Both the position numbers and the translations under genes were made by a program. Below are positions 1,239 to 29,106 of a DNA stretch of 37,454 nt, one piece after another; the stretch's first letter is position 1; each line of letters opens with the position of its first letter. A model generated the notes under the pieces. The model saw only the letters and a list, made by a program, of their open reading frames with translations. It was not told the DNA's origin and did not search any database. Origin of the DNA: Gemmatimonadota bacterium (GTDB taxonomy: Bacteria; Gemmatimonadota; Gemmatimonadetes; Gemmatimonadales; GWC2-71-9); the NCBI GenBank assembly GCA_003221825.1, contig QHUE01000091.1, forward strand, positions 1-37,454. Direction: 5' to 3'.

Positions 1239-2359
1239 CCCGTCACCCGCCTGTAGACTGCCAGCACCCGCTGCGCCACGAGTGGCCACGCATGGCGCTC
1301 GGCGATGCGCCGTCCCTCCTGCGCCATCGTCCCGCGTCGGTCGGTATCGTCGATCAAGGCATTGACCGCGCGCGCCCAGGCATCGGCGTCGCCCGGCGGC
1401 ACGAACATGGCGTGCGACTGCCCGGCAACATCGCGGAAGGCCGGAATATCCGAGACGACCAGCGGCGTACCGCACGCCATCGCCTCGAGCAGCGTCACAC
1501 CAAAGGAGGCGCGCTTCGTGGGACAGACGTACACGTCGGCGCCGCGGTAGTAATCGGGCCGGTCGCCATTGGCATAGCCTGCGAAGTGCACGCTCGGGCC
1601 CAGCCCCCCCCGCCGGGCGGCCCGCTCCATCCGCGCGCGCCACGGTCCGTCACCGACGACGGTCAGCTTGGCAGCCGGATGGCGCTCGAGAATGCTTGGC
1701 ATCGCCGCAAGCACGGTCCCGAGATCGTTGCGCGGCTCGATGCGTCCGAGCCACAGCAGCTGCGGCGGGCGCTGCTCGAAGCGTCCACTTGCCCGGCCCA
1801 GCCCTGGCCGGAAGAACGTCGTGTCGACGCCGTTGGGAATGACTTCCCAGGGCGCCGTGAGGTAGCGGGCCATCGCTTCCTGGGCGGCGCTGCTGACCGC
1901 GATCGTGGCCGCGTGGCGATCGAGCAGCCGCTGGAACGGCCGGCGCAGGATGCGCAGGGCGATCGAGCGGGGGAACCAGGTGTGAAACGTGGCGACGACC
2001 GGAATGCCTGCCCGCACGGCCGCGCGCGGCGCAACGATCCCGAGCGTGGGATTCAAGCCGCCGTGCACATGCACGATGTCGAAGCGCTCCTTGCGGAACA
2101 GCGCCTCGAGCCGCGCGGTGAGTCGCCAGCCGACGGTAATCCGCGCCACGCCGCCGTTCGCATAGATCACCAGACTCGTCCCTACTCTGCGCACGTGCGG
2201 GGGATCGACGTCACCATTCATGCGCATGTGAGAGGTCACGATCGTCGCATGATGGCCGAGGGCGTCCAACTCCCGGGCGAGATGATGCACGTGCTCGGGT
2301 ACGCCACCGAGCTGCGGGTAGTAGTCCTCCGCGATGAGCGCGACCCGCAGCGGCGTCAT
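1235..2359 (-). CDS. GT4-family (GT-B, retaining) glycosyltransferase, PimA-like, 374 aa
   Basis: N-terminus MTPLRVALIAEDYYPQLGGVPEHVHHLAREL. C-terminal region YYRGADVYVCPTKRASFGVTLLEAMACGTPLVVSDIPAFRDV. It is colinear by eye with mycobacterial PimA. ATG 2359 overlaps the upstream TGA (ATGA). Confidence 0.85.
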   Translation of the reverse strand: MTPLRVALIAEDYYPQLGGVPEHVHHLARELDALGHHATIVTSHMRMNGDVDPPHVRRVGTSLVIYANGGVARITVGWRLTARLEALFRKERFDIVHVHGGLNPTLGIVAPRAAVRAGIPVVATFHTWFPRSIALRILRRPFQRLLDRHAATIAVSSAAQEAMARYLTAPWEVIPNGVDTTFFRPGLGRASGRFEQRPPQLLWLGRIEPRNDLGTVLAAMPSILERHPAAKLTVVGDGPWRARMERAARRGGLGPSVHFAGYANGDRPDYYRGADVYVCPTKRASFGVTLLEAMACGTPLVVSDIPAFRDVAGQSHAMFVPPGDADAWARAVNALIDDTDRRGTMAQEGRRIAERHAWPLVAQRVLAVYRRVTG

Positions 2360-3201
2360 CGCGCCCGCTGCTCCAGTCGCTCGACGGCGGAGACGACGGC
2401 GGCGGGCCGCTCTTCCTGGAGGTAATGCCCCGCGCCCGTCTGGCTGTCCACCTCGAACGACACGATGGAGTGATTCATGAGAGCGACCTCTTGTGGCGGC
2501 ACGTCGCCGTCGTGGTGGGCCGTGCCCACGACGAGCGTGACCGGACACGCGATGTCGCCCAGACGGGGGCCGAGCTTGGTCGGCTCGTGCGCCTGCGACA
2601 TCGCGAGAAAGGTCTTGAGCGTCGCGTCGAAGTTACGCGCCTCCCCGAGGGTGTAGCCCATGACCACGCCGTCGGTCACCCACGATCGGTCGCCCGAGGA
2701 ATCGAGCAGCATGCTGCGGACCTTGCGGCGCACCAGGTTGATTCCGCCGAGCAGCTTGACCCAGGGCAGATAGCGCATGGCGCTCCGGAACGTCGGCGTC
2801 GTTGCCTCTTCCGTGGGCCCGCCCTCGAGCGAGACGATGCCGCGCACCAGGTCGGGCCTATCGACCGCGAGCCGAAACGCGATCGCCGCACCGAGTGAGT
2901 GCGCGAGCACCAGCACCGGTCCCGCGTGCAGCGAATCGAGCACAGCGGCCAGACGATGCGCTTGCGCGGCGAGGGAGTAGTCGGCCTTCAGCGGCCGGCT
3001 CGAGAAGCCGGTGCCGAGCGGCTCGATGACGATCGGGCGAAACCCTTGAGCCGCGAGGAGCGGCACGACCTTCCGGAACGTGAAGGACGCGCCGAACAGG
3101 CCCGGGATGACGGCGACCGGTTTGCCGGTGCCGGCCCATGCCTCGACATGCATCGTCTCTGCCGGCGCCACGACGACGTACGGATGTTGCATGGCCAGCA
3201 T
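2356..3201 (-). CDS. Alpha/beta-fold hydrolase, 281 aa
   Basis: Oxyanion-type IPGLFG, nucleophile elbow LAHSLGAAIA, and C-terminal GAGHYLQEERP. ATG 3201 ([10 protein letters not shown]) shares 1 nt with the upstream TAA. The 448-aa ORF-track version is an Arg-rich extension over the upstream gene. Confidence 0.8.
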   Translation of the reverse strand: MLAMQHPYVVVAPAETMHVEAWAGTGKPVAVIPGLFGASFTFRKVVPLLAAQGFRPIVIEPLGTGFSSRPLKADYSLAAQAHRLAAVLDSLHAGPVLVLAHSLGAAIAFRLAVDRPDLVRGIVSLEGGPTEEATTPTFRSAMRYLPWVKLLGGINLVRRKVRSMLLDSSGDRSWVTDGVVMGYTLGEARNFDATLKTFLAMSQAHEPTKLGPRLGDIACPVTLVVGTAHHDGDVPPQEVALMNHSIVSFEVDSQTGAGHYLQEERPAAVVSAVERLEQRAR

Positions 3202-3806
3202 TACGGCGTCCCGAGGCGGGCGGCGCGCGAGGCGACGGTGTTCAGGTCGCCGCCCAGCGCATCCATATCGCGTTGAAAGCGGCAGTCGATGACGAGCAGG
3301 CCGACGACATAAGCGGCGAGATTCACGATGAAGATGATCGAGAAGATCAGGTGATACGGCGCCCAAATCCCGAAGTACAGCGCGAAGCGCTTCACTCCGG
3401 GATCGAGCTTCGAGCGGTCCACGATCGTCGTGAGCAGCAGTACGGCGACCGACGCGAGCACCGCCAGCCGCAGCGAAACGAGCCCGCCCACCGCGCACCC
3501 CAAGAAGATGGCGATCTCCGACGCGCGATCGAGCCACGTGTCGAGCCGGTGGCCGGCCGCGGAGACGAGGCCAAACTGGCGCGCGATGCCGCCGTCGAGA
3601 GCGTCGAGGAGTTGCCCGACGGCCATGAGCACCAGCCCCGGGACGACCCGACCCGTCGCGAATACGGCGGCGGCGGCCGCGCTCACCCAAAACGCGGCCC
3701 ACGTCACCTGATCGGGCGAGAGCCCGAGGGTGACGTGCATGAATCGCAGCACCGGGCGAATGCCGCGGTCTACAGCGGAACCAAGAACAGGAGCAAATTC
3801 ATACAT
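3201..3806 (-). CDS. CDP-alcohol phosphatidyltransferase (small, PI-phosphate/PgsA-like size), 201 aa
   Basis: The full family motif D-x2-D-G-x2-A-R-x8-G-x3-D-x3-D is present in [28 protein letters not shown]. Several TM segments. The start at ATG 3806 overlaps the preceding gene by 37 nt. An alternative ATG is at 3740. Confidence 0.8.
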
Positions 3807-4207
3807 AAGAGGACCACGATGAGAATGGCTTCCTTCGCTTTATCGGACACTCCGACCAAAAACCCCTGCGTGACGAGCGGCGAGTAGGGATACCACGGCA
3901 TCTTTTCGTAGCCGACGCTGTAATCCATCGCCAGGTGAATAAGAAAGAACAGCGCGGGCACCCACGTCCCGAGGAAAAAGCACAGCGGCACGATCCACAA
4001 CAGTGCGACAGGCTCCTGCAGTGACGTCCGCCAGTAATAACCGAGCTGCCTCCGGCGGCCAATCGCGCGCAGGTAAAAGGGGGCTTTGATCGCGTGATCG
4101 ATATCCACGCCGACGCCGAATACGTAGGCGAGCACGGCGTCGCTCCCCGTAAGCTTCAGGACTCGTACGCCGAGGGTGGTCGCGAGCGCGTGGGTGACGA
4201 TCGTCAT
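3770..4207 (-). CDS. Small integral membrane protein, possibly DUF457/YdjM-like metal-dependent hydrolase, 145 aa
   Basis: [14 protein letters not shown].. and VDIDH resemble DUF457 His/Asp motifs. About 4 hydrophobic segments. ATG 4207 overlaps the upstream TGA (ATGA). GC content is locally much lower than the flanks. Confidence 0.45.
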
Positions 4208-5229
4208 TCTGAACGGGCGGCAGGGGCGGTAGGGGCGGCAATGGGTCGCGGCGCTCCTACGGCCCAGATCAGCAGCAGCCCCGCCGCGATCCACGCGAAG
4301 TCGCGCACGCGACCGACGATCGACGTGTACAGACCGAGCTGGGGATCGAGCCCGAAGAGCTTGAAGAGGAGATAGTACGCACCCTCCCGGGCGCCAATCT
4401 CGAACGGCACCAGGAACAGGACGTTGCCCGCAATCGCCTCGAGCCCACCGATGGTAAAGGCAAGCAGGTAGCTGAGCCCGAACCCCAGGCTGGCGACGAT
4501 GAGCACCAGCTCGAGCATGAAGATGCAGCGGCTCAGATACTCGAGCAGGATCGCCTGGACAAAACGACCCGGCTGGCGGTGATAGAACTCCGTGATCTGC
4601 TCATCCAGCTCGACGAGCAGCGCGCGCTTGGGCTCGAGCGCGCCGCCCAGCCGGCGCAGGAGCGGGACCCGATTCAGCCAATTCAGGATCCGCTCGAGCA
4701 CGCCGCTGCGGTGGGCCGACACGAACAGCGCGATGATGCCGACGAGCACCAGCGCCACGACACCCAGGCTGGCGAACACCGCCGTCGGCGTCTCGCGCGG
4801 CAATAACGCAAACGCGAGACCGACCGCCGTGAACCAGACGAGTACGTAGGTGAACGAATGCAGCATGCGATGCAGGATCACGGAGCCGGCGGCGCGTCGT
4901 TTCCCGAGCCACGGCGCGAGCGCCGCGACCCGAAACGGCTCACCGCCGGCGTTGATCAACGGCGTGAGAAAGTTCAGCGCGCCGGCGGAGATCAGCACGG
5001 CGTAGGTGCGCCAGAACGACGGCCGGTTGGAGTCTCCCATCGTCAGCTGCCAGGCGAGCGCGCTACAGGCGTATACGAGCGCGTACAACAACACGATCGG
5101 GATGAACATCCAGCCCGTACGTGTAGCATCGGACACGAGCCGGCCGACGCCGATGCGTGCGATGAGATAGCCGAACACGGCCGCGCCGAGCAGAAACAAG
5201 GCAAGCTGCAACCGCCGGGGCGAGCTCAT
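4204..5229 (-). CDS. UPF0104 / lysyl-phosphatidylglycerol-synthase-TM-region-like (flippase-like) membrane protein, 341 aa
   Basis: Polytopic (about 8 TM segments). Family-like segments are NAGGEPFRV and LVPFEIGAREGAYYLLF. ATG 5229 overlaps the upstream TGA. Confidence 0.65.
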   Translation of the reverse strand: MSSPRRLQLALFLLGAAVFGYLIARIGVGRLVSDATRTGWMFIPIVLLYALVYACSALAWQLTMGDSNRPSFWRTYAVLISAGALNFLTPLINAGGEPFRVAALAPWLGKRRAAGSVILHRMLHSFTYVLVWFTAVGLAFALLPRETPTAVFASLGVVALVLVGIIALFVSAHRSGVLERILNWLNRVPLLRRLGGALEPKRALLVELDEQITEFYHRQPGRFVQAILLEYLSRCIFMLELVLIVASLGFGLSYLLAFTIGGLEAIAGNVLFLVPFEIGAREGAYYLLFKLFGLDPQLGLYTSIVGRVRDFAWIAAGLLLIWAVGAPRPIAAPTAPAARSE

Positions 5230-6227
5230 GCAACTGCAGCATACGAGGCCTCGAGCACCGCCGCGACCTGGGCGATATCGGCCATCGGGCGGGCGCGGTC
5301 ACCCGAATCGAGCGTGGTCGCGAAATCGTGAAACAGCCCGGCAAACCAGGTCGCGTACGCGGACTTGTCGAGATCGGCGGTATGGTCGAACGACTCCATC
5401 TGGCCGCCCTGCTCGAGCGTCAGGATGCCGCCGCTCCAGGTGATACTGCCGCGCTCGCCGATAAACCGGATCTCCGTCTCCCGTCGCCGCGCCGCCCAGG
5501 TGAGAAACATCGTCGCCATTCGATCGGGATACGAGAACACCAGCTGCGCCGTGTCTTCGACGTCGTAGCCGCCGTGGCGCAGGCGACCGGTCCACGCGCG
5601 CACCGCTTGCGGCGGCCCCGCGACGTCGAGGAGCTCGTAGACGAGGTGGGTACCGTGATCGAGGAGCACGCCGCCACGCCCGGCGGCGCGCCGGCCCCGC
5701 CACGGGACGTCGTCCCTGCCGGCGCCGGGATCGGCCGCGAGCCGATAGACCCGGAACTCCGCGAGATGCCAGCGGCCGATCACACCTTCGTCCAGCCAGC
5801 GTTTCACGCGCAGCCACACCGGATTGAAGCGGTACTGGTGACAGGGCATCACGACGCGACCCGCCTCGTGCGCCGCCGCGGCCAGGGTCGCGGCCTCGGC
5901 GCGGTTCACCGCCACCGGCTTCTCGCACAGGACGTGGTAGCCCTGCGACAGGCCCCAGAGCGATAGCTCCAGGTGCGATGCCGTCGGCGTGCAGATGTCC
6001 ACGAAGTCGATCGGACCGAGGTCGGCGAGCTGCTCGGGACGGGATAATAGAGGAATGCCGAGGAACGTCGACGGCGCCGACATCGCTTCCTCCACGATGC
6101 CGACGATGCGCAGCCGGGAGGCCACCTTCGGATCCGACTGGAACGCAGGGAGATGCCCGGAGCGCGCGATCCCGCCGAGCCCGAGCAGGACACCGCGATA
6201 GACCCGGGCGTCAGGCGAGCTGTGCAT
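5226..6227 (-). CDS. Gfo/Idh/MocA-family NAD(P)-dependent oxidoreductase, 333 aa
   Basis: N-terminal Rossmann segment VLLGLGGIARSGHLPAF, the conserved LCEKPVA (EKP) motif, and a C-terminal alpha/beta domain. Confidence 0.8.
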   Translation of the reverse strand: MHSSPDARVYRGVLLGLGGIARSGHLPAFQSDPKVASRLRIVGIVEEAMSAPSTFLGIPLLSRPEQLADLGPIDFVDICTPTASHLELSLWGLSQGYHVLCEKPVAVNRAEAATLAAAAHEAGRVVMPCHQYRFNPVWLRVKRWLDEGVIGRWHLAEFRVYRLAADPGAGRDDVPWRGRRAAGRGGVLLDHGTHLVYELLDVAGPPQAVRAWTGRLRHGGYDVEDTAQLVFSYPDRMATMFLTWAARRRETEIRFIGERGSITWSGGILTLEQGGQMESFDHTADLDKSAYATWFAGLFHDFATTLDSGDRARPMADIAQVAAVLEASYAAVA

Positions 6228-7062
6228 GGAATTTTGGCTCGCGCTCGTGCGCCAGAATGAGGAAGATCAGCACGACGTTCAGCGGCCCCACGACGATCCA
6301 GCAATAGGCGGCCGGCCAGTGCGGCACGGCGGTGAGGGCCAGGAGCAGGAAGCGAATGTTCTGCGCGATCCAGGCGCAGCCCCGCACCACCCAGCGCTGC
6401 CGCTCGGCCCATGAGCGGCGCAGCGACTCCGGCACATCGCGTCCCGACAGCGAGCGCGCGAGGGCCGTCGTGCGCGGGAACAGCCAGGCCTGGCGCCGGG
6501 TGTAGTCGCCGTAGATCCAGGAGGTGATCCGCTCCCAGATCGATTCCGCTCCGCGGATCTCCGCCGGCTCGGCAACGTCCAGCTCGCCGCCTGCACCGAT
6601 CGCGAAATGCAGATACGCCTGGCGGATGAAATCGGCCGCGGCGGCCTGGTAGGAGTGCGACAACAGCGCCGCAATCGCCAGCGCCGGCCCTTCCCAACCC
6701 CACCCGGCGGCATACAGCCGCGCCGCGAGGTGCCCGTACAGACTGATGAAGCGGCCGCTATCGGCCAGGCCATCGAGGATTCTGCCCATGCGGGTGGACG
6801 TGCCGCGCAGGCGCGCGAGCTGCCCGTCCACGCTGTCCAAGACATCGGAGGCGATGAAGAGCAGCACGCCGGCGGCGTTGACCCACGCGGTGCGGTACCA
6901 GAACAGGTGACCCGCGACGACCCCGAGCACGAGGCTCGCGAGCGTCACCGCATCAGGAGAGATCCGCGTCGGCAGCAGGGCCTTCGCAATGCGCCACCCG
7001 ACCGGCCTGAAGAACCGCCGGTCGGCCCATTCTTCGACGACGGGCCCTTTACTGGCGTACAC
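6211..7062 (-). CDS. CDP-alcohol phosphatidyltransferase, long form with C-terminal membrane extension, 283 aa
   Basis: Family motif in DSVDGQLARLRGTSTRMGRILDGLAD (D-x2-D-G-x2-A-R-x8-G-x3-D-x3-D). N-terminus RFFRPVGWRIAKALLPTRISPDAVTLASL. GTG start at 7062, overlapping the upstream gene by 14 nt. Confidence 0.8.
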   Translation of the reverse strand: MYASKGPVVEEWADRRFFRPVGWRIAKALLPTRISPDAVTLASLVLGVVAGHLFWYRTAWVNAAGVLLFIASDVLDSVDGQLARLRGTSTRMGRILDGLADSGRFISLYGHLAARLYAAGWGWEGPALAIAALLSHSYQAAAADFIRQAYLHFAIGAGGELDVAEPAEIRGAESIWERITSWIYGDYTRRQAWLFPRTTALARSLSGRDVPESLRRSWAERQRWVVRGCAWIAQNIRFLLLALTAVPHWPAAYCWIVVGPLNVVLIFLILAHEREPKFHAQLA

Positions 7063-8368
7063 GCGCGCTCGCTTCTTCGAGCACTGCCTTCATGGTGGCG
7101 AGCGCTTCCATCGCCTGCTCGTCGGTGATGACGAGCGGCGGGTTGATCCGTACTTCGGGGTTGTAAATCATCGCGATCACGCCGCGCGCGAGCAACGTGT
7201 CGAAGACCCAACGCGTGATCTTCTTGTCGAGCAGCTTGCGTGTCCCGGGCACGACCAGATCCATGCCGAGCATGAGCCCGCGGCCGCGCACGTCGCTGAC
7301 GATGGGGATCTCGTCTTCCCAAGAGCGCATCTCCTCGAGCATCAACGCTCCTGTTCGACGACTGTGTTCGACGAGTTGTTCTTCTACGATTGTTTGTATT
7401 GTCACGTGCGCCGCGGCCGCCGCGAGCGGGTTGCCGCCGTAGCTCGACGAGCTGCCGCTCGGATTCGCCCACGGCTTGGAGAACGCGATCGGCTCGCGAA
7501 TCACGATGCCGCTGACGGGGAAGCCGCCGCCGAACCCCTTGCCGACGAGCAGCACGTCGGGCACGACGTTGTCGTGCTCCACGGCAAACATTTTTCCCGT
7601 CCGCCCGAAGCCGGTGATCATCTCGTCGCAGATGAGCAGCGCGCCGATTTCCGTGGCGAGGGCCCGCAGCTCCCGCAGGTAGCCGGGGGGCGGGATGACG
7701 TTGCCGGCCGTCCCCTGCACCGGCTCGACGATGATCGCGGCGATGTCGTTCGTCGTCTCGAGCGCGATCTTGGACCGCACGAAATCGACGCAGTGCCACT
7801 CGCACGACGGGAACGTCTTGCCGAACGCGCAGCGCGCGCAGGCGGCGTACGGAGTCGAGTAGTTGCCGGGAGCCAGCGGCCCGAGGCCGTGCTTGAAGCT
7901 GCCCGACAAGAGCGGCAGGACTCCACCCGTCTTGCCGTGGAATCCGCCCCAGAATCCCATCATTTCGTGCCGGCCCGTGGCGGCTTTCGCGAGCCGCACC
8001 GCCGCTTCGACCGCCTCCGCACCGCTCGAGTAGAGCTGCGTGCGGTTCAAGTCGCCGGGCGCGAGCCCCGCGATCAGTTTCACCAGCGCCGCGCGATGCT
8101 CCGACGTGAAGCTCCCCACGTGCACGCGCTCCAGCTGCCGCGTCATCTCGGCGACGTAGCGCGGATGCGCATAGCCGAGGCTCGCGACGCCGACGCCGGC
8201 GAGCAGATCCACGTAGCGATTGCCGTCTATGTCCCACAGTACGGCGCCCTCGCCGCGATCCATGCACAGCTTGCTGAAGAGGGCGACGCTCTGCGTGCCC
8301 GGTGCGAGATACTGCGCCTCGAGCTCGAAGATGCGCTGCGATTCTGATTGGGTGACGAGATCGATCAT
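7049..8368 (-). CDS. Class-III (omega/acetylornithine-type) PLP aminotransferase, 439 aa
   Basis: SSGAEAVEAAVRLAK, IVEPVQGTAGNV, ICDEMITGFGRTGKMFA, and PDVLLVGKGFGGGFP (Schiff-base Lys region). ATG 8368 overlaps the upstream TGA. Confidence 0.85.
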   Translation of the reverse strand: MIDLVTQSESQRIFELEAQYLAPGTQSVALFSKLCMDRGEGAVLWDIDGNRYVDLLAGVGVASLGYAHPRYVAEMTRQLERVHVGSFTSEHRAALVKLIAGLAPGDLNRTQLYSSGAEAVEAAVRLAKAATGRHEMMGFWGGFHGKTGGVLPLLSGSFKHGLGPLAPGNYSTPYAACARCAFGKTFPSCEWHCVDFVRSKIALETTNDIAAIIVEPVQGTAGNVIPPPGYLRELRALATEIGALLICDEMITGFGRTGKMFAVEHDNVVPDVLLVGKGFGGGFPVSGIVIREPIAFSKPWANPSGSSSSYGGNPLAAAAAHVTIQTIVEEQLVEHSRRTGALMLEEMRSWEDEIPIVSDVRGRGLMLGMDLVVPGTRKLLDKKITRWVFDTLLARGVIAMIYNPEVRINPPLVITDEQAMEALATMKAVLEEASARVRQ

Positions 8369-9198
8369 GCCTGTCTTCCGTTTGCGGCCTTTTCGTCGAT
8401 ATAGCCGGCGATCGCCTCCGCAGCAGCGGCGCGCACCGGGGCAAAAGAGGGCCAGTCGTTGAGATCGATGAGCACCGGCGTGTCGGGCTCAGGGAACGCG
8501 ACGTCGCCGCCGAACACCTCGAGCCCGACGGCGCGTGCCGCGGCGAATACAAGCTCCTTCAGGCGTTCTTCCGAGATGTCGACACGGCCTGGATCGGCGG
8601 CATACCACGAGAAGAAGCGCCCGTCGGCGAGGGCGTAGAACTTCACGATCGGCCCGCCGACGTGCGCCTGGAGCGCGACGCGCGCCACGCCGCGCCGGGC
8701 GAACCCGGCGATCGCGTCCGTCACGCCCGCTTCCTTCGCCGATACGACGTCGGCGCTCGTTTCGGCGTGCACGTCGCCGCGCTTCACCCACACCGGCCGG
8801 CCGTCGCCGTTCAATTGATGCACGAGCGGCAGCACCGCCTGTGGCTCGGCGGTCGCCACGATCAGCGTGCGCGGGAACGGCAGCCCGGCCGCCGCCATCC
8901 GTCCGACCAACCGGTGCCGGTGACAGTTGAGGACGCTGTCCGGGGGATTGACGGCCAGCGCTTCCGGTGGCACGAGGTCGAGCAGGCGTTCCGATGCCGC
9001 AGGGCCCTGGCACATGTTCACGTACAGCTCCGCCGCCGGCAGGCGACCCGCGGCGACGTCGGCCTCACCCGTGCGCGTGACCCGCCAACCGCGCCGCTCC
9101 AGCCCGGAGATGGTGTCATCCAGGATCGCCGTGTCATTGCTGCGATGCTGGGCCGGCGAGTACGTCGGGCTCCGATAGAGTGCGACCAGGCGCTTCAT
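8365..9198 (-). CDS. ATP-grasp-fold protein (RimK / inositol-phosphate-kinase-like), 277 aa
   Basis: Pattern match by eye only: RPVWVKRGDVHAE, LQAHVGGPIVKFYALADGRFF, and FGGDVAF...PVLIDLNDWPSF (like the xIDxNxFPxx end of ATP-grasp domains). ATG 9198 (MKRLVALY) overlaps the upstream TGA. Confidence 0.55.
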   Translation of the reverse strand: MKRLVALYRSPTYSPAQHRSNDTAILDDTISGLERRGWRVTRTGEADVAAGRLPAAELYVNMCQGPAASERLLDLVPPEALAVNPPDSVLNCHRHRLVGRMAAAGLPFPRTLIVATAEPQAVLPLVHQLNGDGRPVWVKRGDVHAETSADVVSAKEAGVTDAIAGFARRGVARVALQAHVGGPIVKFYALADGRFFSWYAADPGRVDISEERLKELVFAAARAVGLEVFGGDVAFPEPDTPVLIDLNDWPSFAPVRAAAAEAIAGYIDEKAANGRQA

Positions 9199-9911
9199 CG
9201 TGCCGCCCCTCCCTGCGGTGCGCTGGCCGCGAGCCAACGCTCCGCGGCCTCGAGATCGCGCTTGTGATCGAGATCGATGATCTTCGCCACCTCTACTGTC
9301 GTGATCGGCGCGCGCACGGCGATGAGCAGCTTGAGGAATGCACGCATCCGGTTCTCCGACGTCACGGCCACGCTGGCGAGCCGGCGCGCGCCCGGACTGA
9401 ATCCGTAGACGCCACCCGTCACCACGACGGGAGCCGTGCCGTTGCGAGGGCTGTCGGCGATTTCAATGGCACGCCCCGCGGCGTCGCGCGCGACGTACAC
9501 CGGCCGCTCGTCATCCACAAACGGCGTTACAGCCAGCACCGCAAATGACCCGGCGCGAAGTTGCTCCGTCACACCGGCATAGACGAGTCGCCAGTCCTCG
9601 GCCGGCATCACCGTATCGACCATCGTGCAGAACACCGGACCCGGCGGCACCACCGCCAGACCCGCCACCAGCGTATGCAGCGAGGAGGGCGTGCGGCAGG
9701 CGCGCACGGTGACGGCCGGAGACGGGGGCTGAACGAGTACGCCCTCGCGCACCATGCTCGTAATCGATTCGCAGCCGAGCTGCTCGAGGATCTGAATCAG
9801 GTTGAGGATCTGCGGCCGGCCGGCCACGGACACTAGCGCCTTCGGCGTCGCCACGCCGTCGGCGGCGAGGCGGCTGCCGTCGCCGCCGGCGAGGATGAGT
9901 CCGTGCGTCAC
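9195..9911 (-). CDS. Nucleotidyltransferase (sugar/alcohol-phosphate cytidylyl- or nucleotidylyl-transferase), 238 aa
   Basis: The N-terminal loop HGLILAGGDGSRL...TPKALVSVAGRP is typical of NTP_transferase/MobA-like enzymes. GTG 9911 overlaps the upstream TGA (GTGA). The longer ORF-track N-terminus is Arg-rich and lies inside the HAD gene. Confidence 0.7.
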   Translation of the reverse strand: MTHGLILAGGDGSRLAADGVATPKALVSVAGRPQILNLIQILEQLGCESITSMVREGVLVQPPSPAVTVRACRTPSSLHTLVAGLAVVPPGPVFCTMVDTVMPAEDWRLVYAGVTEQLRAGSFAVLAVTPFVDDERPVYVARDAAGRAIEIADSPRNGTAPVVVTGGVYGFSPGARRLASVAVTSENRMRAFLKLLIAVRAPITTVEVAKIIDLDHKRDLEAAERWLAASAPQGGAAR

Positions 9912-10591
9912 GACGGCAGCACCTCGGCGAGCTCGGTCAACGTGGTGAGCCGCACCGTCGGCACGTTGGCATCGGGCGAGCGCGCGACCGGTGGCGCGAG
10001 CCACGCGGTCTGCATCCCGAGACTCGCCGCCGGCCTGATGTCGGCTTCGAAGTTGTCTCCGACCATCCATACCGGCTCCCCGTTAACACCGCCGCCGAGC
10101 GACTCGAGCGCGTGGCGGAACAGCCGCGGGTCCGGCTTGGTGGCGCCGACTCGGCCCGAGTCCGCGACCGCGGAGAAGTAGCTCATCAAATCCAGTTCCT
10201 CAAGGCAGGGCACCAAATTGCCAGTAAAATTCGACACTACCGCGAGCCGGTACGACCGCTGCAACCTCGCGAGCAGCGCCTGATTGCGGCGAATCACTGC
10301 GACGGCGTGGGCGTGGAAATCCTCCACGATCCGCTCGCGTGACAGCGTGAGCCCATCCGGAAGACGCGCCAACACGAGCGCCGACTGCAGATCGACCATG
10401 GCGCGAAATCCGAGTGATCCGATCCCCGGCACCCGGAGGAGCGCGCGGTCGGACGCGCGAAACGCGTCCTCGAAAACCGCGAACGGCTCGCGCCCGCCCG
10501 CCGCCGTGTAGCCCGCGTGGAACCGCACACTCCAACGCGCGCCATCGGCGTCGAGCGTGCCGCCGAAATCGAACAGCACCACACCGCGCAC
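9908..10591 (-). CDS. HAD-superfamily hydrolase, variant motif I (D-x-G instead of D-x-D), 227 aa
   Basis: Motif I LFDFGGTLD, motif II VVSNFT, motif III Lys in GATKPDP, motif IV MVGDNFEADI. GTG start at 10591. First gene after a 136-nt gap. Confidence 0.8.
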   Translation of the reverse strand: MRGVVLFDFGGTLDADGARWSVRFHAGYTAAGGREPFAVFEDAFRASDRALLRVPGIGSLGFRAMVDLQSALVLARLPDGLTLSRERIVEDFHAHAVAVIRRNQALLARLQRSYRLAVVSNFTGNLVPCLEELDLMSYFSAVADSGRVGATKPDPRLFRHALESLGGGVNGEPVWMVGDNFEADIRPAASLGMQTAWLAPPVARSPDANVPTVRLTTLTELAEVLPS

Positions 10592-10603
10592 CCCGCTCTG
10601 TCA

Positions 10604-10619
10604 GGCAAGAGCGGTACCG
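10604..10619 (-). promoter_or_regulatory. Candidate sigma-54 (-24/-12) promoter
   Basis: The minus strand reads cGGTACcgctcTTGCc. This is GG-N10-GC with the TTGC -12 element (consensus TGGCAC-N5-TTGCW). It lies 13 nt upstream of the HAD GTG and directly downstream of a sigma-54 enhancer-binding-protein gene. The implied 5' UTR is only a few nt. Confidence 0.35.
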
Positions 10620-10727
10620 TAGATCACTCTTGCTATGTGACGCCAAGAACGTGACTTAAGAACGGCGGCGCGCACGACTGGGGCAATTCGCCCCATCGGG
10701 ACTGGGGAGGTTCGGGACACCTCCGGC

Positions 10728-12111
<1,384 letters not shown>

Positions 12112-12119
<8 letters not shown>

Positions 12120-14334
12120 GCGCCGGCTCCGCGACGTGGACGCCCGCCGTGCGGTCCGCCCGCAGGATCACGCGGAATACCGCGCCCCCCCCCACGCCGT
12201 CGTCGTTCGGCTCGTTCGCCGCCTCCAGCGTCCCGCCGCACTCCTCGATCAGGCTGCGCGCCACGACCAGTCCCAGTCCCGTGCCCTTTGGCTTCGTGGT
12301 GAAGAACGGCTCGAACAAATGCGGCAACGCGGGAACCGGAATCCCCGGCCCCGTGTCGGCCACCTCGATATGGACGACGTCGCGTGAGGGTGCGCGCGAC
12401 GCACGGAGCGCGATCGCGCGCGGCCGCTCGGGCGCCATCGTCTCGAGCGCCTGCACCGCATTCAGCACGAGATTGACGAAGACCTGATGCAGGAGATCGG
12501 GATCTCCCAGCGCGGGCAGGGGGCGATCGTAGCGGCGCTCGAGCGCGATGTGATTGCGGGTCAGCTCGCCGTCGAGAAATTCCACCACGCCGTCAAGCAC
12601 GAGCGCCGCATCCATCCGTCCGATGCGGCGCTCCCGCCGTTGACGCGAGTCGAGCAGGTCGCGTACGATCGCGGTGATGCGCTCGATCTGCCGCATGATG
12701 ATCCCGAGGTTGCGGCGCCGCTCGGAGTTTTCGGGCTCGTTTTCGAGGAGCAGGCCAGCGCGCCCCGAGATCACGTTGAGCGGCGCCGCGATATCGTGGG
12801 CCAGTCCCGCCGCGAGATTGCCCACCTCCGCCATCTTTTCGGTCTCGCGCAGCCGGCGTTCCAGCACGACCCGCTCTTCGGCTTCGCGCATGATCCGCGC
12901 GCGCGCCGCCTCCAGATTGCTCGCCATCCGGTTGATTTCGTCCTCGAGTGCCGCCAGCTCGCCGCCTTGCAGCAGCCGCGGGCCGCGGCCGTGCCGTTCG
13001 ATGCGATGGGCAAGCTCGCCGCGACCGAGCGCCTGCACCGCGCCGACGAAACGCTTCATCGGCTCCGCCACGAGGCGGCGCACGAGCCACACCGTCAGCA
13101 CGGCGACGATGATGAGCAACGTGAGCGTATTGAAGAAAAATCGATCGCGCACCTGCGCTTGTTGCTGCTGCACGAACGACAATGGCTGCGCCACCTCGAG
13201 CGCGCCCGAAATCCGTCCGTCGGGACCGTAGATTGGCCGGAGTACCGAGAAGACGTCGTGATCTTCCAGCTCGCGCCGGAACGACACCGGCTTGCCGGTC
13301 GCGAGCACCTTGGCGAGCGATGCGGGGGGCGCCGGACTGGGCGTCTCGACGGAGTCCGACACGAGCAGCGGATTCCCGTGCCGATCGTAGAGCAGAATGG
13401 CGTAGATCTTGGGGTCGCTCGTGACCTGATTGATGACGCGCCGGAAGTTGGCGCGCGTGCTGTCCTGAAACGCATACCGCAGCGCTACACCGAGCGCCGC
13501 GCCGTACGCGCCCATCTCCTGCTCGGCCTGCGCAACCAGCGTGTCTTCCCGCTCGGCCATCGACCAATACATGTAACCCACCATGACCACGGTCATCGTG
13601 GGAAGGAGGAAGAGCAGGAGGCGCGTACTGAGCTTCATACCGGACCGCACATCACGAGTCGAGGACTCAGCCAGCTCGGACAGCGTCGTCAGGCGAACGG
13701 TCGGAACGCCCGCTTCACGCGACTTGCGAGGCGCGTCCGGCGGCGCCAGCCAGGCAGTCGCCAGACCGAGTGCCGCCGCCGGCCGGATGTCGGAGTCGAA
13801 GTTGTCGCCCACCATCCAGGCGGGTTGCGAGACGAGTCCGGGCCAGGTGAGCGCGTGCTGGAACAGCCGCGGGTCGGGTTTGGTGATCCCGACGCGGCCC
13901 GAATCGGCGACGACGGAGAAGTACTGCATCACGCCCAGCTCCTCGAGACAGAGCTCGAGGTTGCCGGTGAAATTCGACACGACGCCGAGATGATACGATT
14001 TGTGCAGCTGCGCGAGCAGCTCTTCATTGCGGCGCACGACGGTGCAAGTGGTGGAATGGAACTCGTCGGCGATGGCTCGCGCGGGAAGCGCGGCACCATC
14101 GGTGAGCCGGGGTAACAGCAACGCGGTTTGAGCGTCAACCATCGCGCGGAATCCCAGCCTCTCTATGCCCGAAAGCCGCTCGAGAGCTCGGTCCGACTCG
14201 CGAAACGCCCGGTCGAACGCCGCGAACGACTGTTTGCCACCCGCCGCCCGATAGGCGGCGTGAAAGCGAACGCTCCAACGGGAGCCGTCCGCGTCCAGAG
14301 TCCCGCCGAAGTCGAAGAGAACCAATCCTCGCAC
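12112..14334 (-). CDS. HAD-like domain fused in frame to a membrane sensor histidine kinase (TM - extracytoplasmic domain - TM - HAMP - HisKA - HATPase_c). The kinase alone could start at ATG 13638
   Basis: One open frame. From GTG 14334 (VRGLVLFDFGGTLDADG..) about 225 aa are a paralogue of the HAD at 9908..10591. Where that gene has its TGA, this copy reads ..SELAESSTRDVRSG and then MKLSTRLLLFLLPTMTVVMVGYMYW (TM1). Further elements are TM2 FFFNTLTLLIIVAVLTVWLV, H-box GLAHDIAAPLNVI, and G-boxes DTGPGIP and GTGLGL. The 905-aa ORF-track version runs over the upstream gene and was not used. Confidence 0.7.
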
Positions 14335-14387
14335 TCCGACAACGACCCGCAAATCGGTGGGATGGTCACCCTGAAACGTTGGACCAC

Positions 14388-14840
14388 CTACCTGAACAGC
14401 GTACCCGATATGAGAGCCATAAGTGCGAGAACCCCTGCAACGGTCGCAAAGACGGCCTGCCGCCTGCGCAATCCACTGAAACTCTCCGGCAGCTCGCCCC
14501 GGGGGTCGAGCTCCAGCCTGCTGAGCCGTGCCGCGGTCGGCATGACGACCCAGATCGCCACGATGGCACCGAGGAGTCCTAATCCCTGCATCGCCATGAG
14601 CCAGGTTGGAACGGTCGCGCTCTTGAAGTATGGCACTGACAGCACGAAGCCGCTCACCACCACGAGGACGGCACCGGGCCCGATCAGATTCCGGGACACT
14701 ACACTCATGACGCGGTATACCGCCAGCCGCTGATCGGGGGGGAAGTACTTGGCGGTGATGCCGCTGAGCATCACGGCGAGCCCGCCGCCCAGCCAGGCGA
14801 CGAACCCCATGACATGGAGGAAGAGCCACACGCCTTTCAT
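14388..14840 (-). CDS. Integral membrane protein (4 TM, DUF2269-like), 150 aa
   Basis: MKGVWLFLHVMGFVAWLGGGLAVMLSG.. with four hydrophobic segments. ATG 14840 overlaps the upstream TGA (ATGA). Confidence 0.6.
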   Translation of the reverse strand: MKGVWLFLHVMGFVAWLGGGLAVMLSGITAKYFPPDQRLAVYRVMSVVSRNLIGPGAVLVVVSGFVLSVPYFKSATVPTWLMAMQGLGLLGAIVAIWVVMPTAARLSRLELDPRGELPESFSGLRRRQAVFATVAGVLALMALISGTLFR

Positions 14841-15656: not shown

Positions 15657-16511
15657 CTATCCTAAAGCCTTTTTCGTTGCCTGGTAACCCATCTCGACAT
15701 ACTCCTGGATGCGATCGACCGCGAACGTTGCTTCGCGCTCGGCGACGGCCCGCACATAGACGAGCCGCGGCCCGTCCTTCGGCCAGTCCGCGAGCGCCCG
15801 CTGCGTCTGCTCCGCCATCATGATCCGCATGGCTTCGCCATGCATCCGCACGACCCGCGGCAGGCGCGCGGGGACGGGCGCGTCGGGCGGCTCTGGCTGA
15901 TCGCCATTGGCGGAAGGTCCACCCCGTTCGTCGAATCCCGGCCCGACGTCCACCGCGACGAACAGGTCCGCGTCCTTCACGCGCTCGAGCGCGGGACCGA
16001 TCGGCAGCACGGCCCTGAGGCCGCCATCGCCCAGGCGCCGGCCGTTCGTTTCGAGCGGCGGGAAGTAGAGCGGGAGTGCGCACGAGCCGTACAGCGCATC
16101 CGCCAGCTCGAACTCGCCCTGCTCCCGGCCGAGCAGCAGCAGCTCGCCGCTGTCGAGATCGGTAGCCGTGACGGTCAGGGGGATGCGCAGGGACTGGAAG
16201 CTGGTCCTCGGAACGAGGACTGCGATGGCGCGCCGCAGGGCGGCGGCCGGAAACAGACTGCGGGCGAACAGACCCATCAGCAACGCCAGCGGATCGAGTG
16301 GCGCGACGTCCTTCCGCCGGATGCCCATGGCGCGGCGGCGCACCTGGTCGAAGGGGATACCCGCCGCGAGGGCGGCGCCGACGACGGCGCCCATGGACGT
16401 GGCGAAGATCTGGCTGGGGATGAGCTCGGCCTGCTCCAGAGCCCGGAAGGCTCCCGCGTGCGCGAGCGCCTTCGCTCCACCACCGGACAAGACCAGTACG
16501 ACCTTACTCAC
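15657..16511 (-). CDS. Patatin-like phospholipase, 284 aa
   Basis: Oxyanion LSGGGAKALAHAG, nucleophile elbow ATSMGA (Ala replaces the first Gly of G-x-S-x-G), and catalytic Asp in LGDGGL. Confidence 0.8.
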   Translation of the reverse strand: MSKVVLVLSGGGAKALAHAGAFRALEQAELIPSQIFATSMGAVVGAALAAGIPFDQVRRRAMGIRRKDVAPLDPLALLMGLFARSLFPAAALRRAIAVLVPRTSFQSLRIPLTVTATDLDSGELLLLGREQGEFELADALYGSCALPLYFPPLETNGRRLGDGGLRAVLPIGPALERVKDADLFVAVDVGPGFDERGGPSANGDQPEPPDAPVPARLPRVVRMHGEAMRIMMAEQTQRALADWPKDGPRLVYVRAVAEREATFAVDRIQEYVEMGYQATKKALG

Positions 16512-22447: not shown

Positions 22448-22529
22448 CGGCCGAAACGGTCGCTCCGAACTGCGAGAGTTGCTAGAGGCTCAGGCGGAAC
22501 TCATTGAGACACATGGGTATCTAGGTGCC

Positions 22530-28981: not shown

Positions 28982-29106
28982 GCAAAGACTAGGTGCGTAG
29001 ACGCAGCGGCGGACGCGCAGTCTTGAGGCAACGGGATAATCCCGCAACCTCAAGACCGTTGCCCGCCGTGCGTCTGCTGCGTCTAGCTTTTGCATGTCCC
29101 CGCTTT
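28967..29106. repeat. MITE-like imperfect palindromic element, copy 2 (~124-nt core), inverted relative to copy 1
   Basis: GGACATGCAAAGACTAG ... CTAGCTTTTGCATGTCCCCGC. The right end is the exact reverse complement of the copy 1 left end over 21 nt (GCGGGGACATGCAAAAGCTAG). Lies between the symporter-fusion stop (29112) and treA. Confidence 0.7.

Follow-up and report, generated by a model that had tools for sequence, protein, structure and literature searches.

A putative "alternative inositol lipid cluster" has been described, as a prediction only, in B. (Phocaeicola) vulgatus and Prevotella, and has been connected with the production of inositol phosphoceramides by B. vulgatus and P. veroralis (Heaver et al., 2022; PMC9246714). 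The text of that study contains 0 occurrences of an ATP-grasp gene. In the MIPS-IPCT-BEPIS operon of Rhodothermus marinus, reported by Jorge et al. (2015, as described in PMC4587543), CDP-inositol is the head-group donor for ether glycerophosphoinositol lipids. The IPCT/DIPPS enzymes of Archaeoglobus fulgidus (PDB 4MND, 2XME) and Thermococcales make di-myo-inositol phosphate (DIP).

Here we analyze a 37,454-nucleotide stretch of Gemmatimonadota DNA (contig QHUE01000091.1), referred to as the window. A preliminary description of its sequence had mentioned a CDP-inositol route as an alternative way to inositol lipids. Such a route is real, being proposed by Heaver et al. (2022) and reported for R. 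marinus by Jorge et al. (2015). The cluster found in the window occurs in many bacterial phyla and is uncharacterized. Most likely it makes a CDP-activated inositol head group, probably aminated here, for a membrane lipid that is not yet described. On balance, we read its six proximal genes as the aminating version of a widespread CDP-inositol (Kennedy) head-group pathway that leads to an inosamine-phosphate lipid.

Organization of the Operon

The six genes are intact and lie on the minus strand at positions 5226-10591, each at the coordinates given in the preliminary description. In order, they encode a HAD protein, a nucleotidyltransferase (NT), an ATP-grasp enzyme, a class-III aminotransferase, a 283-aa CDP-alcohol phosphotransferase and a Gfo/Idh/MocA dehydrogenase. 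They form the first half of an operon of 12 genes, all coupled, the last of which ends at position 594. The six had been called start/stop coupled, and overlaps can indeed be read at every junction. The HAD and NT genes share GTGA, the ATP-grasp gene shares ATGA with each of its neighbors, the aminotransferase gene overlaps that of the long CDP-alcohol phosphotransferase by 14 nt, and the latter overlaps the dehydrogenase gene by 17 nt. Another ATGA joins the dehydrogenase gene to a flippase-like gene. Every catalytic motif is preserved: EKP, the PLP lysine, the signature of the CDP-AP, and K, D and N of the ATP-grasp enzyme. The arrangement is not due to chance: these genes are again found together across the 83 examined loci, which come from several phyla.

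Proposed Activation and Transfer of the Head Group

The first gene (9908-10591; all genes discussed here, upstream regulators included, are on the minus strand) encodes a HAD-superfamily hydrolase that matches Pfam Hydrolase, HAD_2 and Hydrolase_like, and has only sub-threshold matches in NCBIfam. Its motif I is D-F-G-G-T-L, in which the nucleophilic Asp is kept and the general acid/base Asp+2 is changed to Gly. Since D-x-G-G-T replaces D-x-D, this is not a textbook phosphatase. The replacement is found in 70 of the 75 cluster-linked HAD proteins, in both the aminating and the non-aminating class of cluster. Judged by the missing Asp+2, a simple phosphomonoesterase role would be a poor fit.

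The NT (238 aa; 9195-9911; Pfam NTP_transf_3) has its true start at a GTG, yielding VTHGLILAGGDGSRL, and with this start the LILAGGDGSRL motif noted earlier is present. With RmlA-like NTs its profile (A3) aligns only over residues 1-184, and with the IPCTs (2xme, 4jd0, 4mnd) over the full length; E values range from 1e-12 to 1e-16 for both groups alike. Scores against curated families stay far below every cut-off. The locus had been likened to a split IPCT/DIPPS pair. This holds insofar as the two enzymes are members of the IPCT and DIPPS superfamilies and form a split pair encoded side by side. Profile comparisons do not put the NT with IPCT over sugar-1-phosphate NTs, the two being equally distant, and this counts against a CDP-inositol reading. 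We infer that the NT makes a CDP-activated alcohol with CTP as the nucleotide.

The long CDP-alcohol phosphotransferase (283 aa; 6211-7062; PF01066) carries the full D-x2-D-G-x2-A-R-x8-G-x3-D-x3-D signature. A hydropathy scan places an insert of ~75 residues, with no strong hydrophobic stretches, before its last two membrane helices. Thirty-four conserved positions are common to both cluster classes, and no residue switches with class. The profile of this protein (A2) scores 76.6 bits with AF2299, 40-44 with PIP synthases, 30.4 with DIPPS and 30 with CEPT1. The best solved match, AF2299 of A. fulgidus (PDB 4O6M/4O6N/4Q7C; E 1.9e-20), is a CDP-alcohol phosphotransferase that was crystallized with CDP-glycerol and whose donor is a soluble CDP-alcohol (PMC4634129). 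Approximately six membrane helices have been associated with soluble acceptors (Clarke et al.). Because AF2299 and DIPPS process no lipids and six or so helices go with soluble acceptors, these likenesses favor a solute as the product.

The ATP-Grasp Enzyme

The ATP-grasp enzyme (277 aa; 8365-9198) has no match in Pfam, Ins134_P3_kin included, and represents a hitherto undescribed family. The family comprises 849 representative clusters and has the signature [IV]-D-x-N-[DA]-W-P-S-F. A profile built from 84 relatives matches PsnB (1.6e-7), ITPK4 (2.6e-6), RimK (5.5e-5) and ITPK1 (1.5e-3). The AlphaFold model (pLDDT 96) resembles RimK, ArgX and CPS at Z 21 and ITPK1 and PPIP5K2 at Z 18-19; the slightly higher values for the ligases count against a kinase. 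The C-terminal D-x-N-D-W-P-S-F is nearer to D-L-N-Y-L-P-S-F of ITPK4 than to E-V-N-S-S-P-G of RimK. In the family tree, aminating and non-aminating forms are set apart by only two changes, and the conserved residues are the same in both cluster classes with the single switch of Q64 to R. In 20 of the 21 sampled Bacteroidales clusters the gene lies between those for the NT and the transferase.

Acylation of the amine had been suggested as one of two roles for this enzyme, the other being phosphorylation of the alcohol. Judging from gene content, it probably does not acylate the amine, since it is nearly constant, with the same conserved residues, in Bacteroidales clusters whose surroundings include neither an aminotransferase nor a dehydrogenase. 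As a whole, the preliminary interpretation is partly supported, with acylation as an unlikely part of it.

The Putative Aminating Pair

The class-III (omega-type) PLP aminotransferase (7049-8368; PF00202, 306.6 bits) has an intact PLP-lysine motif, and its nearest solved structures are GABA and putrescine aminotransferases. It is the best conserved protein of the cluster (47-59% identity between phyla) and directly follows the ATP-grasp enzyme in 71 of 71 examined loci of the aminating class. The Gfo/Idh/MocA NAD(P) dehydrogenase (5226-6227) has the EKP motif and matches Pfam GFO_IDH_MocA and C-terminal domains. Its sub-threshold matches are levoglucosan dehydrogenase, IolG and UDP-GlcNAc 3-dehydrogenase, and its PDB matches include WlbA-like, DgpA and scyllo-inositol dehydrogenases. 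The two had been singled out as a pair, and they do travel together as an add-on, also in clusters linked to MIPS (myo-inositol-1-phosphate synthase). Aminocyclitol pathways usually employ DegT-type rather than class-III aminotransferases, which counts against an inosamine product.

Distal Genes and Upstream Regulators

The flippase-like membrane protein (4204-5229; LPG_synthase_TM, HpnL-like; PF03706, 88 bits; TIGR00374 above cut-off) falls outside the region first described. It belongs to the conserved core, and the majority of related loci in either class contain it. It is followed, with ATGA coupling, by a small membrane protein of no recognized family (3770-4207), which has no Pfam match, and by a short CDP-alcohol phosphotransferase (201 aa; 3201-3806; PF01066). 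The latter resembles archaetidylinositol-phosphate (AIP) and PIP synthases, with NCBIfam scores of 61.9 bits for AIP synthase and 49 bits for PIP synthase, both under cut-off. These two genes co-occur in many Gemmatimonadales loci and in one Ignavibacteriales locus. An alpha/beta hydrolase (2356-3201; Pfam Abhydrolase_1/6), whose start codon abuts the previous stop, is limited to the closest relatives. The last two genes, both with ATGA coupling, encode a GT4 glycosyltransferase (1235-2359; Pfam Glycos_transf_1, Glyco_transf_4), with sub-threshold matches to MSMEG_0565, MshA, BshA and GlcNAc-PG synthase, and a NodB-type polysaccharide deacetylase (594-1238; NCBIfam PdaB/NodB).

Directly upstream of the operon is an NtrC-type sigma-54 activator (10728-12119; Pfam Response_reg, Sigma54_activat, HTH_8), a response regulator, and then a histidine kinase reading frame (12112-14829, start tentative; Pfam dCache, HAMP, HisKA, HATPase_c). 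The latter frame also holds a paralogue of the operon HAD (Pfam HAD_2/Hydrolase, residues 169-360) before dCache. The window also contains trehalose-6-phosphate synthase-like and trehalase genes.

Distribution and Linkage to Inositol Synthesis

No fewer than 593 species genomes, from several phyla, contain the same gene set. Most of the aminating gene set, with a transferase of a different type, is also present in the cultured Desulfoferrobacter suflitae DRH4 (locus L088). The 83 loci, compared in a tblastn matrix, represent Gemmatimonadota, Verrucomicrobiota, Ignavibacteria, Myxococcota/Desulfobacterota, Elusimicrobiota and Bacteroidales. Within its own phylum the cluster is accessory and patchy (36 of 296 genomes). 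Rosetta-stone fusions tie the HAD, NT and ATP-grasp proteins to one task: HAD-NT-ATP-grasp (P0187), NT-ATP-grasp (six representative proteins) and ATP-grasp-HAD (P0273). In GCA_016204975.1 a single row comprises LPG_synthase_TM, a fused protein, Aminotran_3, GFO, the CDP-OH transferase, an unknown gene and MIPS.

MIPS adjoins eight aminating Ignavibacteria-type loci, loci L009 and L023, and most Bacteroidales loci; relatives with MIPS as a neighbor belong to Ignavibacteria, Bacteroidales, one Gemmatimonadales locus and one MAG. The Bacteroidales form is without aminotransferase and dehydrogenase and has the order NT, ATP-grasp, CDP-AP, flippase-like, HAD, MIPS. MIPS was not found in the window; the gene lies next to that for a canonical PIP synthase on a different contig. 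Almost every genome of the phylum carries MIPS (275 of 296), so that little can be read from its presence. Two genomes (G449 and G451) have the cluster and no MIPS match.

Proposed Pathway and Alternatives

In the order of steps that we propose, MIPS encoded on the other contig would supply inositol phosphate, which would be processed by the ATP-grasp enzyme, most likely an inositol- or inosamine-phosphate kinase, and by the unusual D-x-G HAD. The NT would activate the processed inositol phosphate with CTP, and the AF2299/DIPPS-like long transferase would then pass the phospho-alcohol to a membrane lipid alcohol (diacylglycerol or ceramide). The dehydrogenase would oxidize one ring hydroxyl, at whichever position is aminated, to a ketone, and the aminotransferase would convert this keto-inositol to an inosamine, giving an inosamine-phosphate head group. 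The flippase-like protein may move the lipid across the membrane, and the distal genes (second transferase, hydrolase, GT4 and deacetylase) may elaborate it further in this lineage.

A kinase is the more likely, putative, activity of the ATP-grasp enzyme. A somewhat unlikely alternative is that it is not a kinase but a carboxylate-amine or carboxylate-hydroxyl ligase, which would couple an amino acid or some other acid to the head group and so yield an inosamine or inositol lipid in aminoacylated form. The top fold matches are to RimK, ArgX/LysX and Ddl (Z 20-21; Foldseek E 1e-12), the profile matches PsnB and RimK no less strongly than ITPK4, and the only charge-changing class switch of the cluster, Q64 to R, lies in this enzyme, which may therefore see the aminated position. 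However, 20 of 21 Bacteroidales clusters without an aminating pair nearby contain the enzyme, and its 24 to 34 conserved residues are unchanged there, an acid-supplying gene is not among the conserved members, and the C-terminal motif is ITPK-like. Improbable as the final product is a soluble phosphodiester, namely an aminated compatible solute of the di-myo-inositol-phosphate or glycerophospho-inositol type. In such a scheme the NT would be an IPCT, the long transferase would link CDP-inositol with another soluble alcohol phosphate, and the HAD would take off the phosphate that is left, as in the conversion of DIPP to DIP. A flippase-like protein in the conserved core, the loss of the phosphatase general acid/base residue from the HAD, and a simpler form that accompanies inositol-phosphoceramide lipids in mesophilic gut Bacteroidales all speak against it. 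DIP-type solutes, moreover, are known from (hyper)thermophiles. In its favor are the nearest solved transferases, which have about six membrane helices and use soluble substrates, the constant presence of a phosphatase-type gene, the trehalose-related genes of the window, and the position of this patchy, accessory operon behind a two-component system.

It is also quite unlikely that the activated molecule is not derived from inositol. The NT would then make an NDP-(amino)sugar or another CDP-amino-alcohol, the dehydrogenase, aminotransferase and HAD would follow the kanosamine (NtdC/NtdA/NtdB) logic, and the inositol link seen elsewhere would be incidental or confined to the non-aminating form. 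The NT profile does score best with RmlA, GDP-mannose pyrophosphorylase and AglF-type NTs, sugar 3-dehydrogenases are among the nearest relatives of the dehydrogenase, and MIPS is missing from the window and from the two genomes named above. Yet MIPS directly adjoins aminating clusters (the Ignavibacteria-type loci, L009 and L023), and among solved NTs, full-length matches are confined to the IPCTs. By definition of its family, the long transferase requires a CDP-linked donor rather than an NDP-sugar, and it has no change specific to the aminating or the non-aminating class.

Comparison With Known Systems

Pairs that aminate sugars or cyclitols include NtdC/NtdA/NtdB of kanosamine synthesis, which also involves a HAD phosphatase, WlbA/WbpE, and the inositol dehydrogenase and inosose aminotransferase of aminoglycoside pathways. 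These pairs share with the window the oxidation of a ring hydroxyl by a Gfo/Idh/MocA enzyme followed by PLP transamination; their aminotransferases are of the DegT/DnrJ type, whereas that of the window is class III. The inositol phosphate kinases ITPK1, ITPK4 and PPIP5K2 have in common with the ATP-grasp enzyme the fold (Z 17-19), the Mg/ATP residues and a C-terminal D-x-N-x-x-P-S-F, but identity is 11-16% and ligases score equal or higher. The match between AF2299 and the long transferase covers the juxtamembrane and catalytic helices; AF2299 differs in having a cytidylyltransferase-like domain at its N terminus and is without the 75-residue insert and C-terminal part of the window protein.

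IPCT is of the same superfamily as the NT (full-length match, E about 1e-12), DIPPS has the same CDP-AP signature as the transferase, and their route also has a later dephosphorylation. In contrast to the separate genes of the window, IPCT/DIPPS of A. fulgidus is one fused protein; the window proteins reach 22-37 bits with the NCBIfam IPCT/DIPPS families against a cut-off of 580, the long transferase scores 30 bits with DIPPS, far less than the 77 bits with AF2299, and the product of DIPPS is a solute of thermophiles. The R. marinus operon, likened here by its description rather than by BEPIS sequence, shares the logic of MIPS, a cytidylyltransferase and a CDP-alcohol-family transferase that puts inositol phosphate onto a lipid alcohol without CDP-diacylglycerol. 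In the published description, it lacks genes for an ATP-grasp enzyme, a HAD, a dehydrogenase and an aminotransferase (PMC4587543).

The Bacteroidales form equals the cluster of Heaver et al. (2022) in content and order, as compared by genes rather than by alignment with B. vulgatus proteins. Relative to that cluster, the window has an additional class-III aminotransferase and Gfo/Idh/MocA dehydrogenase, additional second transferase, hydrolase, GT4 and deacetylase genes, and no adjacent MIPS. Both contain an NT, a CDP-alcohol phosphotransferase, a HAD hydrolase and a membrane protein that resembles lysyl-PG synthase, and such Bacteroidales loci share 27-36% identity and relative gene order with their homologues in the window.

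Organization and surroundings of the operon

The operon described here represents an uncharacterised pathway that is widely conserved. The window has a high GC content and is a contig of a 79%-complete MAG, and its nearest relatives are Gemmatimonadales MAGs. The core consists of six minus-strand genes. They encode a HAD protein (9908-10591), a nucleotidyltransferase (NT; 9195-9911), an ATP-grasp enzyme (8365-9198), a class-III aminotransferase (7049-8368), a long CDP-alcohol phosphotransferase of 283 aa (6211-7062), and a Gfo/Idh/MocA dehydrogenase (5226-6227). Pfam identifies the HAD, the NT (NTP_transf_3), the aminotransferase (PF00202), and the dehydrogenase; the phosphotransferase carries the complete family signature, and the ATP-grasp gene was recognized by later analysis. 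The NT gene starts with GTG and reads VTHGLILAGGDGSRL. The preliminary description had presented these six genes as start/stop coupled, and this holds: all are intact, and the successive junctions are GTGA, ATGA, and ATGA, followed by overlaps of 14 and 17 nt. Six further coupled genes encode a flippase-like LPG_synthase_TM protein, a small membrane protein, a second CDP-alcohol phosphotransferase of 201 aa, an alpha/beta hydrolase, a GT4 glycosyltransferase, and a NodB deacetylase. The coupled operon thus has 12 genes in all and ends at position 594.

An NtrC-type sigma-54 activator gene and a histidine-kinase frame lie upstream of the operon. A sigma-54 promoter had been proposed upstream of the operon, at CGGTAC-N5-TTGCC (within 10592-10727). 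A search for TGGCAC-N5-TTGCW with at most two mismatches does not recover this site, which by eye has three. About 13 matches with two or fewer mismatches are expected by chance in the window, so the case for a sigma-54 promoter comes from the adjacent activator gene and not from the sequence match. The histidine-kinase frame (12112-14829, minus strand) includes a paralogue of the operon HAD with the identical D-F-G-G-T-L motif, placed N-terminal to dCache, HAMP, HisKA, and HATPase domains. The frame may encode a protein that senses a pathway intermediate, or it may be a merger of two genes through the loss of a stop codon. The window also contains a patatin-like phospholipase gene (15657-16511, minus strand), a trehalose-6-phosphate-synthase-like gene (22224-24755, plus strand), and a trehalase gene (27401-29170, minus strand), for which no link to the operon was found.

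Two forms of the cluster and their distribution

With each species represented by one genome, at least 593 genomes were found to carry a relative. The window's proteins were compared with 83 loci by tblastn, and the clusters fall into an aminating form, which has the aminotransferase and the dehydrogenase, and a simple form, which has neither. In the aminating form the aminotransferase gene always directly follows the ATP-grasp gene, and a Gfo/Idh/MocA gene is nearby in nearly all complete loci. Its contigs are labelled Gemmatimonadota, Verrucomicrobiota, Ignavibacteria, Myxococcota/Desulfobacterota, and Elusimicrobiota. The simple form is found in Bacteroidales and Melioribacter with the order NT, ATP-grasp, transferase, flippase-like gene, HAD, and myo-inositol-1-phosphate synthase (MIPS). 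Two changes between the forms are sufficient to account for the ATP-grasp tree. The window's proteins share 27-36% identity with the loci of Bacteroides, Muribaculaceae, and Porphyromonadaceae (tblastn). A search that started from the transferase recovered it from 26 of the 151 Bacteroidales genomes in the sample.

Within Gemmatimonadota the operon is a patchy accessory trait. The ATP-grasp gene occurs in 36 of the 296 high-quality genomes sampled; for the family of the window the figure is 33 of 125, and for its genus five of eight. Fusions among the ATP-grasp representatives join the core enzymes in several ways: six are NT-ATP-grasp, one is HAD-NT-ATP-grasp (P0187), and one is ATP-grasp-HAD (P0273). 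The P0187 fusion sits in a row of LPG_synthase_TM, the fusion itself, Aminotran_3, GFO_IDH_MocA, a CDP-OH transferase, an unknown gene, and MIPS. P0273 has as neighbours MIPS, an NT, a CDP-OH transferase of 318 aa, and a carboxypeptidase-regulatory-like protein. One Bacteroidales genome has an in-frame fusion of the NT to the C-terminal two-thirds of the transferase (L115:620-1897). This frame was considered as a Rosetta-stone fusion of the two enzymes and rejected, the catalytic motif and the ATP-grasp gene being missing; it looks like the remnant of a deletion that inactivated the cluster. Three clusters do not match their labels. A locus labelled Hyphomicrobiales (L046) looks Gemmatimonadales-like, one labelled Bifidobacterium (L053) Verrucomicrobia-like, and one labelled [Ruminococcus] lactaris (L085) Bacteroidales-like; the likely explanation is faulty binning or a recent transfer.

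The nucleotidyltransferase and the long CDP-alcohol phosphotransferase

The NT has the N-terminal G-x-G-x-R-L signature as LILAGGDGSRL and matches NTP_transf_3 with 40.6 bits (Pfam). A profile of 35 orthologues matches RmlA and GDP-mannose pyrophosphorylase types at 7e-16 to 1e-15 over residues 1-184, and the inositol-1-phosphate cytidylyltransferases (IPCTs) 2xme, 4jd0, and 4mnd at 9e-14 to 3.5e-12 over the full length. In NCBIfam, AglF, archaeal GlmU, RmlA-long, and IPCT/DIPPS (DIPPS, DIPP synthase) are equally remote, at about 1e-16 to 1e-18 at best and far under their cut-offs. The NT appears to be a family of its own in these profile comparisons, which do not separate a placement with IPCT from one with the sugar-1-phosphate uridylyl-, thymidylyl-, or guanylyltransferases.

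The signature of the long transferase, D-x2-D-G-x2-A-R-x8-G-x3-D-x3-D, extends from D76 to D101, and its residues are invariant across 33 aligned orthologues. The profile of these orthologues matches AF2299 best (76.6 bits), followed by PIP synthases (40-44), DIPPS (30.4), and CEPT1 (30). The protein falls below every curated NCBIfam cut-off, with 58.5 bits for AIP synthase (cut-off 180), 41.7 for PIP synthase (170), and 37 for IPCT/DIPPS (580). Enzymes of the DIPPS/AF2299 type have a fused N-terminal cytidylyltransferase-like cytosolic domain, whereas the long transferase lacks it and begins at the juxtamembrane helix; the NT of the window is a separate gene, two genes upstream. The transferase has about six to seven helices, and an insert of about 75 residues is without strong hydrophobic stretches.

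A longer transferase type of 409-429 aa lies near the cluster in GCA_016204975.1 (L009:14777-16006) and Desulfoferrobacter suflitae (G004:C7:37990-38376). These proteins match the long transferase in the catalytic helices only, and in the former the catalytic domain is C-terminal. The D. suflitae strain, DRH4, has most of the aminating genes (locus L088). In several Bacteroidales genomes the long transferase has an additional paralogue that is more distant (L118, L119, L120, and G001:C4:28627-29472). In L118-L120 a flippase-like gene is beside this paralogue, and the 1.5-kb flanks contain no NT or ATP-grasp gene.

The HAD protein, the aminotransferase, and the dehydrogenase

Motif I of the window HAD is D-F-G-G-T-L, and D-[FYML]-G-G-T-[LI] is found in 70 of 75 cluster-linked HADs from both forms. 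The residues of motifs II, III, and IV are present in the translation. The window protein does not match the phosphatase motif D-x-D-x-T, as the general acid/base at Asp+2 is absent. In HAD phosphatases Asp+2 protonates the leaving group, and its absence is known from HAD members whose substrates are activated phosphoryl groups or whose chemistry is of another kind. Given the recurrence of D-x-G-G-T, Asp+2 is absent throughout the cluster-linked HADs, and the cluster HAD may not be a plain phosphomonoesterase.

The aminotransferase matches PF00202 with 306.6 bits over residues 34-430, its translation contains the PLP-lysine motif D-E-x-x-T-G...G-K-G-x-G-G-G, and its nearest relatives are GABA and putrescine aminotransferases. 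The dehydrogenase belongs to Gfo/Idh/MocA and is akin to sugar and cyclitol secondary-alcohol dehydrogenases. It does not reach the equivalog cut-off for the myo-inositol 2-dehydrogenase IolG (TIGR04380, 57.5 bits vs 355).

The ATP-grasp enzyme

The ATP-grasp family comprises 849 representative clusters at 50% identity, and the window protein has no Pfam match at E 0.01. Among solved structures, a profile of 84 members matches PsnB (1.6e-7), ITPK4 (2.6e-6), RimK (5.5e-5), and ITPK1 (1.5e-3), with the matches to ITPK4 and ITPK1 limited to the C-terminal part. An AlphaFold model from the 84-member alignment (pLDDT 96.3) has the full three-domain ATP-grasp fold; a single-sequence model (pLDDT 49) was discarded. 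The model aligns with CPS, RimK, and ArgX/LysX at Z 20-21 (21.2-20.3) over 245-261 residues, and with ITPK1, ITPK4, and PPIP5K2 at Z 17-19 (17-18.7 for the ITPK family). VIA-align places ITPK1 and PPIP5K2 just 2-3 Z units under the ligases. Foldseek returns the same ATP-grasp fold, with no inositol kinase among the matches listed. Comparison of the predicted fold does not decide between kinase and ligase. The Mg-ATP residues K139, K186, D232, D245, and N247 are conserved in the family, and the C-terminal signature [IV]-D-x-N-[DA]-W-P-S-F is nearer to D-L-N-Y-L-P-S-F of ITPK4 than to E-V-N-S-S-P-G of RimK.

Positions conserved at 90% or more within the aminating form were compared with those conserved to the same degree within the simple form. 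The transferase has 34 conserved positions common to both forms and no switches, and the ATP-grasp enzyme has 34 and one charge-changing switch. This is at residue 64, which is Gln in the aminating form and Arg in the simple form, also at the 95% level; no other class-specific switch in the conserved core alters the charge. Two switches in the NT, T165S and L193Q, are mild. The comparison suggests that the portion of the substrate in which the forms differ is seen by the ATP-grasp enzyme and not by the transferase, which is weak evidence because the two forms are nearly separate lineages.

The preliminary description had left two roles for this enzyme, phosphorylation of the alcohol or acylation of the amine. 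The catalytic residues are kept in clusters that have no aminotransferase or dehydrogenase nearby, so the same chemistry is expected in both forms. Of the two roles, acylation thereby loses ground, and conservation of these residues argues for phosphorylation, for example of inositol, inosamine, or an inositol phosphate. A ligase, which would fit the slightly higher Z scores, is rather unlikely; this question is separate from the choice between pathways.

A proposed pathway and its alternatives

We lean, by a narrow preference, toward a head-group route of the CDP-inositol type with added oxidation and transamination, leading to an inosamine-phosphate lipid. A bolder and more tentative proposal is that several phyla make an inosamine-phosphate membrane lipid via CDP-inosamine or CDP-inositol. 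This lipid would be a zwitterionic relative of phosphatidylinositol and inositol-phosphoceramide, of which we found no report. The ATP-grasp enzyme would be a bacterial kinase for inositol or inosamine (or its phosphate), and it and the D-x-G HAD would jointly set the ring position of the linking phosphate. One hypothetical scheme would use every core enzyme once. MIPS would make D-Ins3P, the ATP-grasp enzyme would add a second phosphate, and the NT would activate this second phosphate with CTP. The transferase would then place phospho-inositol phosphate onto a lipid, and the HAD would remove the remaining phosphate, leaving the usual 1-D linkage.

The transferase could instead act on a soluble acceptor and yield a DIP-like product. 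Its best match, AF2299, binds CDP-glycerol, which is a soluble donor, and lipids are not among its substrates. Clarke et al. link soluble acceptors to a set of about six helices, and lipid acceptors to additional helices at the C-terminus (PMC4634129). The six to seven helices of the window protein agree with this alternative, which we nevertheless hold to be improbable. We give a substrate other than inositol the same low standing. MIPS adjoins most simple-form loci, and it adjoins aminating loci too, namely eight of the Ignavibacteria type, the GCA_016204975.1 locus, and one Gemmatimonadales locus (L023). It has no match in two cluster-bearing genomes (G449 and G451), and the window contains none. 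The sample used for the ATP-grasp count, which includes the unpublished genomes G211, G336, and G311, has MIPS in 275 of 296 Gemmatimonadota genomes, so its presence is uninformative on inositol dependence within the phylum. The MIPS gene of the window's genome is on another contig (C212), directly preceded by a PIP-synthase-like gene (157.9 bits, cut-off 170; L008:403-2456). With these two genes the genome has a conventional inositol-lipid route, that of phosphatidylinositol, to which the operon of the preferred inosamine-lipid reading would add another. A pyrophosphatase gene follows the two genes on C212.

Two further readings were considered. A mycothiol-like thiol pathway, suggested by the GT4, phosphatase, deacetylase, and ligase functions, was rejected because the GT4 and deacetylase genes are confined to the closest relatives and the conserved core does not depend on their presence. 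A hopanoid link was considered from the HpnL-like protein, and the window contains no hopanoid genes.

Relation to published inositol-lipid routes

Lipid synthesis that depends on CDP-inositol has been reported in a single bacterium, and a proposal exists for gut Bacteroidales. According to PMC4587543, Rhodothermus marinus uses CDP-inositol as a lipid head-group donor and encodes a MIPS-IPCT-BEPIS operon. Literature searches on head groups of the inosamine or aminophospholipid kind, in Gemmatimonas and in bacteria generally, gave no relevant result. Phyla of soil, sediment, and groundwater contain a large branch of the family that carries the oxidation/transamination pair, which predicts an aminated inositol head group. 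If this is true, it would be a new class of bacterial membrane lipid with a charge unlike that of phosphatidylinositol, a difference relevant to envelope biology and to lipid biomarkers in soils. The ATP-grasp enzyme would then be a candidate for the bacterial inositol kinase noted as 'missing' in Tannerella (PMC4587543).

A close published counterpart is the putative 'alternative' cluster of Bacteroides vulgatus and Prevotella (Heaver et al., 2022; PMC9246714). In this cluster, genes for an NTP transferase, a HAD hydrolase, and a CDP-alcohol phosphatidyltransferase adjoin MIPS, with lysyl-PG-synthase-like and carboxypeptidase-regulatory-like genes nearby. CDP-inositol was proposed as the donor in a Kennedy-like route, and ATP-grasp is never mentioned (PMC9246714). 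The window's cluster is homologous to Bacteroidales loci of this type, with NT, transferase, and HAD clustered. The published cluster directly adjoins MIPS, whereas that of the window does not. The published gene content is exactly that of the simple form. The quoted B. vulgatus locus tags are BVU_RS13095, 13105, and 13115 (PMC9246714), and the two unlisted genes between them probably occupy the site of the ATP-grasp and flippase-like genes in the loci examined here. In 20 of the 21 best orthologous Bacteroidales loci, an ATP-grasp gene lies between the NT and the transferase, which makes it a near-constant member of the cluster. The published model of three enzymes (NT, then transferase, then HAD) is thus incomplete: the proposed three-gene cluster is a core of five to six genes, in which the ATP-grasp enzyme had gone unnoticed and the HAD is non-canonical, and this bears on how B. 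vulgatus and Prevotella make inositol sphingolipids.
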